42,302 bases of DNA from a virus (taxonomy: Duplodnaviria; Heunggongvirae; Uroviricota; Caudoviricetes). This document shows, in pieces, positions 35,110-38,976 of the stretch. The notes beneath the pieces were generated by a model. It was not told the origin of the DNA. It ran no database searches and saw only the letters and a list, made by a program, of their open reading frames with translations. The position numbers and the translations under genes are program-made. The stretch lies in IMG/VR virus record IMGVR_UViG_2713896905_000008; one strand, written 5' to 3'. Each line of letters opens with the position of its first letter. The stretch's first letter is position 1.

Positions 35110-35696
35110 GCGTTAGTTTCTCCACAACCAGAAGCAATCGACGCCACGACGCCCGGAGCTGCACACTCGCGGGCGTCATTACTTTCTGAAATGCAAAAAA
35201 TTTTGTAGACAAGTGCTGCATGCTCCTGCAGCTTCGAAATTGAGAGGTACAGCTCGTCGTTAATTGCTGTCTTCTCATGCGGTTCCACTACACCGTCTTC
35301 GATTGCTGAACGAATCTGTTTTGAATAACTGCCGATCTGTTCAATGACTTCCAGCAGACGCTGGTTAATATCGGCGTTGTCCACATCCTCGACGTCAGGA
35401 AGAGACACAAAGACGCCATTTGCAGACTGCGCCACAGCGTCAGCAATGAAGTGAGTGCCACCAGCACGTTGTAAAATCATTGCCCATCCCAGCGGGAAAA
35501 TTTGATCGCCATCGGCACGAAGGCGATTAAATAATGCGTTCTCTGTTACATCCAGCCAGTCAGCTGCTTCAGCGTAACCCCCCGGCAACGCTGCGATAGT
35601 TTTTCTGACAGCTTTCACGTACCACTTAGGCTGTTTTTCTACTTTCCAGTGATGCTTACCCACGGCTATCTCCTTAAAACTGTGGTTACTTTTCAT
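35106..35696 (-). CDS. early regulatory protein (YmfL/CII-like, putative)
   Basis: ORF-track span 35106-35768; likely start at MKSNHSFKE. Second gene of the rightward early operon after cro. Confidence 0.45.
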
Positions 35697-35934
35697 CTGA
35701 TGAATCTTTAATCTTTTGAAAAATATCTGGACGTAATTTTTCTTTTGATATGCCAGTGGTCTTTTCAATGAATATCGAGAGCTTTGCAGGGGGACGCTTT
35801 TCTCTGTTCAACCAGTTCCAGACATGTTGTTGCTTTACTAAATGACCGCTGCTGGCTGTGAGCTTCCGAGCCAATTCTGATTGACCACCAGCCAGAGCGA
35901 TTGCCTCCGATAAGGCTAATTGCTCAGGTGTCAT
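35686..35934 (-). CDS. Cro-like repressor (YdaS-type HTH)
   Basis: 82 aa; helix-turn-helix LSEAIALAGGQSELARKLTASSGHLVKQ; divergent from the CI-like gene across the operator region. Confidence 0.7.
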   Translation of the reverse strand: MTPEQLALSEAIALAGGQSELARKLTASSGHLVKQQHVWNWLNREKRPPAKLSIFIEKTTGISKEKLRPDIFQKIKDSSDEK

Positions 35935-36069
35935 AGCTTTCTCCTTTTTAGGTAGTTAAGTTGTTACGAGTTGCAAGAATACAACATTAACAACTTTTAT
36001 CACAACTTTTAGGTGTTGGAAAGCTAAAACATAAAGTTGTAACCTCATCAAAAAAGAGAGGGATATGTT
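35935..36069. promoter_or_regulatory. OR-like divergent promoter/operator region between cro and cI
   Basis: Multiple copies of the half-site ACAACTT / AAGTTGT (AAGTTGTtacg..., ACAACAttaACAACTTttatcACAACTTtt..., ataAAGTTGTaac) in the 135-bp intergenic region. Confidence 0.6.
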
Positions 36070-36756
36070 GTGAAAACACTGGCAGAACGATTAAAGATAG
36101 GTAGAGAGAAAGCTGGCATGAGCCAAGCTCAACTAGCTGAAAAAATTGGACTTTCACAACAATCTGTAGCCAAAATAGAGAATGGCGAAACTCTACAACC
36201 GCGCAAAATTAAAGAAATTGCAAAAGTTTTAGGTGTATCACAAAAGTGGTTACAACTTGGTATTGAAGACAACGCATCCATACCTGATCTTGTTGTAAAA
36301 GAAGCAGAAAGCACCGCATTAGACCCCGATATTTTCGTAAACATTCCTGTTTTAGATGTCGAGTTATCGGCAGGTAACGGATGTCTGGCTGAAATAGTTG
36401 AATCAGCTATTGACTGGTTTCCGTTAAGAAGAGCAGATTTGAGAAAATCTGGCGTATGTGCATCTAATGCCAAGATCGTAAAAATATGGGGGAACAGTTT
36501 ATTACCGGTTCTCAATAATGGAGATCTTGTTGCCGTTGATATTTCTCAAACCATTCCTATTCGTGATGGCGATCTTTATGCCGTACGAGATGGTGTATTG
36601 CTAAGGGTTAAAATACTTATCAACTTACCTGACGGTGGCTTGATTCTTAGAAGCTTCAACAAAGATGAGTACCCAGATGAAATACTCACCTTTGAAGATA
36701 GACGAGCCAGAATTCATGTTATAGGTAGGGTATTCTGGTCATCGCGAACTTGGTAA
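36070..36756 (+). CDS. CI-like prophage repressor (HTH plus LexA/S24 peptidase-like domain)
   Basis: 228 aa; N-terminal HTH MSQAQLAEKIGLSQQSVAKIENG; C-terminal S24-like region (IWGNSLLPVLNNGDLVAVD). Probable GTG start. Confidence 0.8.
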   Translation: MKTLAERLKIGREKAGMSQAQLAEKIGLSQQSVAKIENGETLQPRKIKEIAKVLGVSQKWLQLGIEDNASIPDLVVKEAESTALDPDIFVNIPVLDVELSAGNGCLAEIVESAIDWFPLRRADLRKSGVCASNAKIVKIWGNSLLPVLNNGDLVAVDISQTIPIRDGDLYAVRDGVLLRVKILINLPDGGLILRSFNKDEYPDEILTFEDRRARIHVIGRVFWSSRTW

Positions 36757-37659
36757 TGCATCGAAAAGCATTTCTTCAGAAATAATTTTAAGTTTTGCAC
36801 CATTATCATCCCTATAAGATATAGCTTTTTCGATCTTCCTTCCGTGACTTGAGAATTTCCAATCACGGGAGGAAAGCGTCCCAATTACTAAAAAATCCAA
36901 CTTTTGAGTAATTCCACTACTGATGTTCCCACCAGCATTTTTAATCAAATTTTCAACTACGGCTCTCTTTCCTGCAACAAAAGTGCCTGTAAGACAATAG
37001 GTTTTACCCTCTAACTCTATCGAAGCCCCTACATCAATAGGCAGCCTGGTCGCCAAACCATCCACCACCCCACTTTCCAAGTCACATCCTGTGAAGTCTA
37101 CTAATGCCTTATGTAGAGTTAAACTCTCATCTTCAGTAATAACCCCATCTTTAAGAATTTCCTTTACAAGTGCATAAAGTTTTTTTCCTGGGTAGTTGTT
37201 CTTCAAAGCTCCATTTTGCTCAAGCCACCAATTAAGATATCTTATTTCTTCTTGAGTTAAGTTCCGATCAGCAATTAATCCTTTACATAGTCCATTAAGT
37301 AAATGGACATCTACATCCTTGGAGTAAAAATCAATTTCAGGGATATCAAGAATTTCCCTCTGTATTTGGAGAAGGCTATTTTTAAGGTCATCACGTTCTT
37401 CTGATGTGATTATTCCATCCGCAAGAATATCCGACACCCGTGCTGATAGACTTTTTATAACTCCATTATTGATAATCTGCTTTGCTTCAAGTAACCATGT
37501 ATCTAAGTAAAGAACCTCCTCTTCACGGACAACTCCATCTGCAATGATTCCATCAATGATGCTAATCAAGTTAGCAAATAACTTGTCCCGGTTCTGTGTG
37601 TAATTAAAAGCGTAAAGCGCGTCTTCCATACAACCTCCTTTTTTTGATAATCCTTGCAC
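36739..37659 (-). CDS. BRCT-domain protein with four N-terminal ~35-aa repeats, unknown function (cargo at rexAB-equivalent position)
   Basis: C-terminus LEGKTYCLTGTFVAGKRAVVENLIKNAGGNISSGITQKLDFLVIG...KLKIISEEMLFDAL parallels the LigA-type BRCT fold. N-terminal repeats each contain ..ADG.IT.EE...L.. A+T-rich; convergent with cI. Confidence 0.55.
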   Translation of the reverse strand: MQGLSKKGGCMEDALYAFNYTQNRDKLFANLISIIDGIIADGVVREEEVLYLDTWLLEAKQIINNGVIKSLSARVSDILADGIITSEERDDLKNSLLQIQREILDIPEIDFYSKDVDVHLLNGLCKGLIADRNLTQEEIRYLNWWLEQNGALKNNYPGKKLYALVKEILKDGVITEDESLTLHKALVDFTGCDLESGVVDGLATRLPIDVGASIELEGKTYCLTGTFVAGKRAVVENLIKNAGGNISSGITQKLDFLVIGTLSSRDWKFSSHGRKIEKAISYRDDNGAKLKIISEEMLFDALPSSR

Positions 37660-37692
37660 TCCTTGACTACACGTTCAAACCACATAAAGTTG

Positions 37693-37721
37693 TTGACAAT
37701 GTTCAAAATCACAACTAAATT
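37693..37721 (+). promoter_or_regulatory. pL-like promoter candidate with flanking operator half-sites
   Basis: TTGACA (37693-37698), 17-bp spacer, TAAATT (37716-37721). Flanked by AAAGTTGT, ACAACT and ACAACTT motifs shared with the OR-like region. Confidence 0.5.
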
Positions 37722-37880
37722 ACAACTTAAAGATGTTAAAAACAACAAACAGGCAGGACGCCCACGAAGTAGCCGCCTGGGGCATATGAAGTCCAGGATG
37801 ATTCGTTAGCAACAAAAAAGCGCCCTACAGGACGCTTAGCTCTTTAACAATCTGGTCCCCATCAACAAGTAACTGATAAC

Positions 37881-38102: not shown

Positions 38103-38508
38103 GATCCCATTCATTTTCGTCAAAATCATCAAAGTGATGAATTTGTGATCTCCAGTCTCGATAATCTAAAAATTTCTGGGCGGTTACGCTTATTTTATCA
38201 AGTGTGAGTTCATCCTGAATTGAAAGAAGAAGTTCATCAAATTTCATCTCATTAATCTGTTTTGGCATCCAGTGATGCTTCATCAGAATAAGGTGAACCA
38301 GAGCCTTTTTCCCATTCAACTGATTATAGGGAGTGCCGAATTTCTTCCGGTGCTCATGTAAGACAAGGTCCAGAAGAGTAAGTAATGTTGCCCTTGATTC
38401 AACTTTGCTTATTTCGACTGATGACACTACCCCACTGATTTCAATGCCCCGATACTTTCCAACATTTTCACAGTGGGATTTGTACAGCGTATAGATATTA
38501 CCGGACAT
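38074..38508 (-). CDS. hypothetical protein with Rx6H motif (possible HEPN-like)
   Basis: 144 aa, A+T-rich, opposite strand to the surrounding early genes; C-terminal RDWRSQIHH. Confidence 0.4.
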   Translation of the reverse strand: MSGNIYTLYKSHCENVGKYRGIEISGVVSSVEISKVESRATLLTLLDLVLHEHRKKFGTPYNQLNGKKALVHLILMKHHWMPKQINEMKFDELLLSIQDELTLDKISVTAQKFLDYRDWRSQIHHFDDFDENEWDPNLSAQYLK

Positions 38509-38639
38509 TTCTTTTCCTTTTGCGTTGTTGGGGATAACCAGATTAACCGAATCCTTGTTGTTGGGGAATAACCAGGTCCACCTCGCCTGATGTGGCTAAA
38601 AGCAGGCACATAACAGCTAAGTATTTTCAACCAGAGAGA

Positions 38640-38930
38640 ATCCTTAGCGTTGTGGTGAATGCGGCTCAGCGCACGCGGGTAAAGGTTGAGGCTGACAGTC
38701 GACCTTCTGTGGATACCCACCCGCCTGGTGTGCAACCTTCGCTAGGCACCGGGAGGCGCCCGGCACCACAACTTTATGCTGTGTGTAGTCTTGGCGGTAC
38801 CAGCTTGTACCCTTGCTTCCGGCTGGTACCGTCCTTTTTACAAAACAGAGAAGAGCATCACCGGACGACGGGCTCATAACCCAATCCATCCGGGCGGCTG
38901 CCACCGCAGGTGTTCTTCTCTGTTTTGTGG
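38640..38930 (+). ncRNA. candidate structured non-coding RNA / RNA regulatory element (strand uncertain)
   Basis: GC-rich region with no protein-like frame. Nested complementarity GTTGTGGTG (38650)/CACCACAAC (38765) and GCACGCGGGT/ACCCGC..GTGTGC; hairpin GGTACCAGC-16nt-GCTGGTACC followed by GTCCTTTTTAC; stem ACAGAGAAGA/TCTTCTCTGT around a 58-nt insert. Confidence 0.35.
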
Positions 38931-38976
38931 AGAAACCAACCGGCCTTGCAGGGTCGATATGATGAGGAGCAGCAAA

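Follow-up and report, generated by a model that had tools for sequence, protein, structure and literature searches.

The 42,302-nucleotide stretch of viral DNA analyzed here (IMG/VR record IMGVR_UViG_2713896905_000008, Caudoviricetes; hereafter the window) contains repeated copies of ACAACTT in the gap between its cro and cI genes (positions 35935–36069) and again around a promoter on the far side of cI, beyond a gene encoding a BRCT-domain protein. An original prediction interpreted these copies as operators of a CI-like repressor, divided between two regions in the manner of OR and OL of phage lambda. We find that most of them belong to a 15-bp inverted repeat, ACAAC-N5-GTTGT, that is present twice in each region, and we consider it likely, on the strength of sequence comparisons, that these dyads are the CI operators (OR and OL) of a lambdoid prophage immunity switch of the lambda/434 kind. 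Both the statistics of the dyads and an arrangement conserved in ~84 relatives support the predicted two-operator architecture.

ACAACTT comprises the strong half-site of this repeat plus two bases of its center, and four of the six exact copies in the two regions are dyad halves (the other two, s1 at 35958 and s3 at 35990, stand alone). Pairs of half-sites were scanned at all spacings from N0 to N13 in both orientations, inward and outward. The inward N5 spacing places four dyads in OR and OL, and every other combination places at most one; the single match at N8 overlaps one of these dyads (OR-b) and was rejected, its extra conserved bases being explained by the −35 element TTGGAA of the candidate cI promoter, PRM. 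With up to one mismatch allowed, ACAAC-N5-GTTGT occurs eight times in the window against 1.3 expected, a count reached by none of 100 shuffles, and four of the eight matches are the OR and OL sites. Local shuffles, which preserved dinucleotides and were made on each region's own sequence (a 135-bp region for the cro–cI gap), produced two dyads in 0 of 5,000 cases for OR and in 0.06% for OL. A position-weight scan, partly circular because its matrix was trained on these four sites and on relatives, scored the four at 21–23 bits, the next match at 14.8 bits and all others at 5 or less.

Every dyad combines one perfect half with one half carrying a single mismatch, around an A/T-rich center. The two OR sites are OR-b (36002–36016; ACAAC-TTTTA-GGTGT, ACAACTTTTAGGTGT; 22.6 bits) and OR-a (36026–36040; AAAAC-ATAAA-GTTGT, AAAACATAAAGTTGT; 21.3 bits), with centers 24 bp apart, and the two OL sites are OL-A (37679–37693; ACCAC-ATAAA-GTTGT, ACCACATAAAGTTGT; 22.7 bits) and OL-B (37722–37736; ACAAC-TTAAA-GATGT, ACAACTTAAAGATGT; 22.8 bits), with centers 43 bp apart. 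OR-a and OL-A have the 12-mer ACATAAAGTTGT in common.

The order cro–OR–cI–OL is kept in all of the ~84 related loci, which come from several genera and retain these four dyads, separated by spacers that vary. These relatives include four diverged loci found in species-representative genomes (CI 58–71% identical), in assemblies labelled Pseudomonas lundensis, Proteus terrae, Providencia rustigianii and Serratia microhaemolytica, and 80 further viral contigs from IMG/VR (CI 76–100% identical). Two dyads in each of OR and OL were found in 14 of 15 representative relatives, and the remaining one (L003) has a single OR dyad at the threshold applied. Across 15 diverged representatives, the N5 dyad was found 60 times inside OR and OL and not once in the 92.6 kb outside them. 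Our phylogenetic footprint comprised 42 distinct OR and 42 distinct OL sequences, in which the operator cores hardly change, whereas variation is free in the promoter spacers and between the elements. OR-b has its left half in 42/42, with GGTGT or GATGT as its right half; OR-a is kept in 40/42; and the center and right half of OL-A are present in 42/42. OL-B pairs either ACAAC with G(G/A)TGT or ACACC with GTTGT, so that a perfect dyad occurs in 0/42 and exactly one mismatch in 40/42, a pattern that fits a joint reading of both halves together with selection for sub-maximal affinity. At OL-A, two relatives (L002 and L003) carry a perfect AACAAC-ATAAA-GTTGTT palindrome (6+5+6).

The dyads occupy characteristic positions relative to the promoters of the switch. 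OR-b overlaps the −35 element of PR, the promoter for cro on the minus strand (36005..35976; −35 TTGTGA at 36005..36000, an 18-bp spacer and −10 TATTCT at 35981..35976), and abuts the −35 element of PRM, which we infer for cI on the plus strand (36016–36043; −35 TTGGAA at 36016–36021, a 16-bp spacer and −10 TGTAAC at 36038–36043). This position resembles that of OR2, and OR-a, which overlaps the PRM spacer and −10 element, resembles OR3. A promoter prediction tool calls PR as TTGTGA-18-TATAAT (10/12 consensus matches) in two relatives (L050 and L001), and ATTATA stands at the position of its −10 element in 30/42 distinct sequences. Whereas most other relatives have a perfect TATAAT as the PR −10 element, the window and the E. 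coli sequences closest to it have TATTCT, so PR is probably weaker in this lineage. The PRM −35 TTGGAA is present in 41/42 sequences and TGTAAC or TGTAAT in 39/42, with TGTAAT in about half of the relatives.

Single half-sites accompany the dyads. In OR, s1 (35958–35964, minus strand; AAGTTGT, an exact copy) lies at approximately +6 to +12 of the expected PR transcript; its GTTGT is kept in 41/42 sequences between variable flanks, as a conserved 8-mer island AAAGTTGT, and it has no partner half-site at N5. On the plus strand, s2 (35981–35987; ACAACAT, one mismatch; core in 39/42) abuts the PR −10 element and s3 (35990–35996; ACAACTT; core in 41/42) lies in the PR spacer and is repeated in the same direction, 12 bp downstream, as the left half of OR-b (ACAACTTTTA twice, spacing 12). 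The OL counterpart, ACAACTA (37711–37717, plus strand; core in 39/42), lies directly upstream of the −10 element of the PL promoter and recurs in the same direction, 11 bp further on, as the left half of OL-B. We searched for a canonical OR1 dyad ~24 bp from OR-b toward cro by spacing and weight scans and found none at any tolerance; in its place stand two half-sites in direct orientation, 9 bp apart, and our best guess is that these are auxiliary contacts within a cooperative oligomer. A further half-site-like element, s6 (36065–36071, minus strand; ATGTTGT, a one-mismatch copy), overlaps the GTG start codon of cI. Its position reads AAGTTGT in most relatives, and AAGTTGTG is present in ~16 of 22 representative sequences judged by eye, among otherwise variable leader bases; s6 might act as a roadblock or in autoregulation, or the match may be coincidental, owing to the start context.

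The same half-sites invite a different account, namely that the unit read is a single 7–9-bp element, ACAACTT(T/A)A, in any orientation, and that CI or Cro subunits on flexible linkers and in higher-order oligomers bind arrays of it. The four lone copies (s1, s2, s3 and the one at 37711) are indeed as conserved as the dyad halves (s6 is less so), s1 and s3 rank in the top three of the window by half-site score, a direct-repeat copy precedes both OR-b and OL-B by 11–12 bp, and L002 and L003 have outward-facing half-site pairs near cro. Yet the weak halves GGTGT, AAAAC, ACCAC and GATGT are conserved as well, always at exactly N5, and no other spacing or orientation yields more than one pair in OR and OL. 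OL-B exchanges which of its halves is imperfect and still keeps one mismatch, which makes sense only if the two halves are read jointly, and the perfect palindrome at OL-A in L002 and L003 points the same way. Domains of the 434 type, moreover, bind as symmetric dimers (PMC1636474). We consider the single-element account improbable, although it is the one that fares best among the alternatives to dyads bound by CI.

The sequence of CI is consistent with dyads of this kind. The cI gene (36070–36756, plus strand) encodes 228 residues with HTH_3 (1.4e-15) and Peptidase_S24 (1.7e-14) domains in Pfam. The closest solved relative of the protein is the N-terminal domain of the 434 repressor (434 residues 1–69; phmmer E 4e-13). 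Its recognition helix, SQQSVAKIENG, aligns with TQQSIEQLENG of 434, and the Pro-Arg of 434 Arg43 (R43) is kept. Q30, Q31, K35, R45, S143 and K181 of CI are invariant in diverged relatives, and an Ala-Gly cleavage site and a Ser143/Lys181 dyad are conserved. In 434 co-crystal structures, Gln28, Gln29 and Gln33 have known roles. The 434-like Gln-Gln-Ser helix provides a structural rationale for the ACAA end and the A/T-rich center of the operators, and the fixed fifth base pair here may be due to the substitution of Lys35 for 434 Gln33.

In phage 434, OR and OL each consist of three 14-bp sites whose outer 4+4 bp, ACAA...TTGT, are conserved and whose center, which is not contacted, tunes affinity (PMC1636474). 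The two systems share the Gln-Gln-Ser helix start, the Pro-Arg, the ACAA...TTGT ends, the A/T-rich center, divergent cI and cro genes and a second operator cluster at PL. They differ in that the operators here are 15 bp long (ACAA-N7-TTGT) with a fixed C/G at the fifth base pair and Lys35 in place of 434 Gln33, and in that each region has two dyads with lone half-sites, whereas 434 has three dyads. No 434-spaced ACAA-N6-TTGT was found in OR or OL with up to one mismatch; all four sites are N7. The Cro proteins also differ, the one here being of the YdaS type (PF15943 only, no HTH_3) and not a paralogue of the CI N-terminal domain.

As a negative control, we analyzed the nearest CI proteins of sequenced phages, those of the Stx1-converting phage SH2026Stx1 and the Salmonella phage S.Kent 1-2-1, which are 42–45% identical, have the same domain architecture and carry a different recognition helix, SQPAIQK. 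These phages have no BRCT gene, and their cI–cro gaps contain no ACAAC. The gaps hold instead 14-bp ATAAC-N4-GTTAT dyads spaced 24–25 bp apart, of which three are exact in SH2026Stx1 and two in S.Kent 1-2-1 (L088 2427–2489; L089 2426–2488), and which we read as the putative OR operators of these phages. Short dyads with 5-bp arms, 24–25 bp apart in OR, are common to both immunity types.

This comparison bears on whether the sites might be bound mainly by a protein other than CI, be it Cro alone, a host factor or a cII-like activator. In favor of Cro, one can cite its co-variation with the module, its homology in all loci examined and its conserved KQQ(H/Q)VWNWL helix. Against this, the CI helix is 434-like and 434 reads ACAA; the sites also bracket PL, 1.7 kb distant and past cI, in the manner of lambdoid CI operators; and related CI proteins with a different helix have different dyads at the same place. 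Because Cro and CI share operators in lambdoid switches, a role of Cro would be additional rather than alternative, and we regard a chiefly non-CI occupancy as very unlikely.

The second cluster surrounds a strong promoter. The TTGACA–TAAATT promoter of the original prediction was recovered by the promoter tool with 10/12 consensus matches and is designated PL (37693–37721, plus strand; TTGACA at 37693–37698, a 17-bp spacer and TAAATT at 37716–37721). Its hexamers are conserved, and its spacer has 32 variants among the 42 distinct sequences. OL-B covers the PL start site, and OL-A lies between the PL −35 element and that of a divergent, putative promoter for the BRCT gene (37678..37650, minus strand; −35 TTGAAC at 37678..37673, a 17-bp spacer and an extended −10, TGC-AAGGAT, at 37658..37650). 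Upstream of the BRCT gene, conservation picks out ATCCTT and CA, separated by one variable position (TGnAAGGAT on the gene strand); next come a variable 12-nt stretch and then a conserved ATCAAAC that directly abuts OL-A; the −35 consensus in relatives is TTGATT. We read these elements as a probable weak extended −10 promoter. The center of OL-A lies at approximately −43 of this promoter and mirrors OR-b at approximately −41 of PRM. On either side of the module, the gene layout supports the PR and PL assignments: past cro, one finds a cII-like gene and an O-like replication gene, and past PL, early genes of the phage on the plus strand.

That a conserved weak BRCT-gene promoter abuts OL-A might suggest that the second cluster is only the private regulatory region of this accessory gene and has no part in early-left control by OL and PL. 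However, the 10/12 promoter faces away from the BRCT gene, toward the early genes on the plus strand, and it is this outward promoter that OL-A and OL-B bracket. Furthermore, in one clade (L035–L049; CI 93% identical) the BRCT gene has an internal deletion of ~740 bp (L040 3690–3830), and both the cluster and its promoter are intact there, with OL unchanged. The sites therefore do not depend on the BRCT protein, and exclusively private control is, in our judgment, highly implausible. The same clade retains both ends of the gene, which indicates deletion rather than ancestral absence; we accordingly rejected the idea that the BRCT gene was inserted as a moron into an older cI–OL unit and treat it as an ancestral part of the module.

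Counted as exact 7-mers, ACAACTT and its complement number 12 in the 42.3-kb window (5.8 expected), a modest excess that two of 100 window-wide shuffles reached. The cro–cI gap holds four of them (35958 and 36034 on the minus strand, 35990 and 36002 on the plus strand), a number seen in 0 of 5,000 local shuffles (mean 0.11), and the second site holds two (37687, minus; 37722, plus), which 0.4% of local shuffles reached. The earlier count of at least five copies in the gap is thus too high for the exact 7-mer and correct for the 5-bp core ACAAC/GTTGT (five copies) or with one mismatch allowed, which adds ACAACAT at 35981 and 36065 and brings the total to six. The recurrence of the motif around the second promoter was borne out, with the one-mismatch ACAACTA at 37711 joining the two exact copies there, and the two densest 135-bp windows for ACAAC/GTTGT in the 42 kb are exactly these two regions. 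An origin of the clustering in chance, in the composition of A/T-rich intergenic DNA or in promoter elements, for which the low G+C content of both regions (32–34%) and the modest window-wide excess might speak, is effectively refuted by counts beyond the reach of local dinucleotide shuffles, by cores that are kept across genera while adjoining bases vary, and by the fact that sigma-70 promoters have no ACAAC element. Several ACAAC/GTTGT cores inside the 5′ part of cI make 36154–36295 the third-densest 135-bp window. One of them is formed by CAACAA, the codons for the Gln-Gln of the recognition helix, and these cores are probably a coding coincidence.

From the motifs, their spacing and the gene homologies, we infer binding of CI and its regulatory consequences as follows. 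Dimers of CI would bind the dyads through the 434-like helix-turn-helix, whose recognition helix starts with Gln-Gln-Ser. At OR-b, CI would block the PR −35 element and thereby keep cro, the cII-like gene and the replication genes off, while lying ~41 bp upstream of the PRM start, the place from which lambda CI at OR2 activates. At OR-a, CI over the PRM core would exert negative autoregulation, as at OR3 in lambda. At the other end of the module, CI at OL-B would cover the PL start site, with OL-A abutting the PL −35 element. The lone half-sites (s1, s2 and s3 at PR and one at PL) may extend the repressor contacts over the PR and PL core promoters, and s2 and s3 may stand in for the canonical OR1. 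CI probably shares its sites with Cro, which likewise carries a Gln-Gln helix. From the Ala-Gly site and Ser/Lys dyad of CI, we expect the prophage to be SOS-inducible. Only tentatively, and as a possibility that we would not rate highly, do we suggest the combination of three further features: an OL-A that faces two ways, helping to repress PL and acting like lambda OR2 on the divergent BRCT promoter so that CI activates the BRCT gene in lysogens; a pair of direct-repeat half-sites in place of OR1; and a 434-like repressor that reads non-palindromic arrays.

Much of this arrangement is familiar from lambda, in which operator centers are 24 bp apart, OR2 lies at −42 and CI at OR2 activates PRM. 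The two switches share divergent cro and cI genes, an S24 self-cleavage domain in CI, OR dyad centers 24 bp apart, an operator at approximately −41 of the cI promoter with another overlapping that promoter, and a PL operator cluster beyond an accessory gene adjoining cI, like rexAB. They differ in operator sequence and length and in the subfamily of the DNA-binding domain, and the module here is without a canonical OR1 or a third OL site. Its accessory gene is also transcribed toward cI from its own promoter rather than co-transcribed with cI.

Several observations weigh against the operator assignment as we have drawn it. The 55-bp block 35989–36043 is conserved throughout, so conservation cannot separate operator, promoter and other constraints within it. 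In the window itself, PR, PRM and the BRCT promoter all fall below the threshold of the promoter tool, PR being placed by homology and the other two from the conserved elements described above. With the OR1 dyad absent, the PR core has only single, direct-orientation half-sites, a poor read for a symmetric dimer. The 15-bp rather than 14-bp spacing means that the geometry of 434 is not simply transferable, and a search of the accessible literature returned no description of this motif or module. Finally, the classical pattern in lambda, 434 and P22 is three operators in each region, and here only two dyads in each stand above background. The Shiga-toxin phage 933W is likewise a lambdoid switch off the 3+3 operator rule; it has no OL3 site and still has three OR sites (PMC5977221), and its repressor and operators are unrelated to those described here. 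It offers a precedent for an OL with two sites; the lack of a canonical OR1 is what is unusual in the present module.

The window is an E. coli lambdoid prophage with a backbone of the SfV/SfII/SfIV/e14 (ymfL) type. Its DNA similarity to SfV, SfII and SfIV ends at ~35675 and resumes at ~37740, which marks the interval from cro to OL as a distinct, exchangeable immunity module. The whole module is present in 48 of 5,426 complete E. coli genomes (~1%) at 98–99.6% identity. Among sequenced phage isolates, none represents this immunity type, and identity to CI reaches 44.5% at most. The flanking genes match their first description, with cro (35686–35934, minus strand) encoding an 82-residue helix-turn-helix protein of the YdaS/Cro type (Pfam PF15943, E 8e-15; phrog_35, transcriptional repressor) on one side and, beyond cI, the BRCT gene (36739–37629, minus strand) encoding 296 residues (BRCT, 1.3e-6; phrog_3989, 1.5e-128). 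One of the diverged relatives (L001; JAWQUI010000002.1, labelled Pseudomonas lundensis) has near-identical operators in an otherwise enterobacterial immunity module; either the host range truly crosses orders, or the assembly is mislabelled or contaminated.

The original prediction placed the BRCT gene between the two operator clusters. That position is correct, and the gene is more than a passenger there, being a conserved member of the module with a putative promoter of its own abutting OL-A; it lies between cI and OL in all related loci except the one clade in which it is deleted, and the protein is 56–77% identical in L001–L004. The gene converges on cI, and the 3′ coding ends overlap by 18 bp (36739–36756). 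With no terminator between the two genes, each transcript would be expected to run antisense into the other. The family comprises 354 homologues across Enterobacterales, often mislabelled as 'NAD-dependent DNA ligase' and without functional annotation. Helical repeats with a DG(V/I)xxxEE motif occur in the N-terminal part of the protein, its BRCT domain at the C terminus is of the RFC1/LigA type, and it matches the PADLOC candidate PDC-S48 weakly. In AlphaFold models of database homologues, confidence is confined to the C-terminal BRCT domain; this domain is similar to those of RFC1, LigA and XRCC1. A literature search found nothing relevant on BRCT proteins together with a prophage repressor. 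In the Vibrio phage K139 (cI–orf2–glo–int operon), orf2 is a 33%-identical homologue that also directly adjoins cI; K139 differs in being a P2-like phage in which orf2 is co-directional with cI in one lysogenic operon.

Downstream of PL, the leader (37750–37850) contains an element of ~55 nt, beginning CAGGCAGGACGCCCACGAAGTAGCCGCC, that is kept in many relatives and also in SfV-type phages of other immunity types. It is followed by a G+C-rich hairpin (37818–37837), which reads also as a minus-strand terminator, and by AGCTCTTTAACAA (37838–37850), which matches the rrn boxA consensus at 12 of 13 positions. The stretch may constitute a nut-like antitermination site. We considered a structured RNA in the leader (37728–37860) and rejected it; an Rfam search returned no matches, including in the PL leader, and the predicted fold is no better than that of shuffled sequences (z = −0.63).

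The 14.8-bit match of the weight scan, ACAACTTTATGCTGT at 38768–38782, was considered as a fifth operator and rejected. The 400 bp around it are 96–98% identical in SfV, SfIV, Kati and others, and because those phages are of different immunity types, the match does not travel with this repressor. It lies within ~450 bp of G+C-rich DNA (38500–38950), similarly 96–98% identical in SfV, SfIV, Kati and other phages, in which we found no convincing open reading frame and no Rfam match. A reading of TTATCACAA as a DnaA box was also discarded, as by eye it did not fit the consensus.

The immunity specificity defined here is uncharacterized, but it is most likely served by an essentially ordinary switch of the lambda/434 kind, and the current understanding of phage switches is unchanged by these findings. 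What is particular to it is the 15-bp ACAAC-N5-GTTGT operator, the two dyads with half-sites in each region and the conserved BRCT gene wired to OL. The module offers a natural comparison with 434, in which the same Gln-Gln-Ser and ACAA are combined with a 15-bp site, a fixed fifth base pair and Lys for Gln33, a contrast that could be used to study helix-turn-helix specificity and the evolution of half-site spacing. Our analyses define an operator code for an immunity type carried by ~1% of complete E. coli genomes and by prophages in assemblies labelled Serratia, Proteus, Providencia and Pseudomonas lundensis. They also place a widespread and unstudied BRCT protein under apparent repressor-linked control, which makes it a candidate for a function expressed in lysogens, such as exclusion or the sensing of DNA damage.

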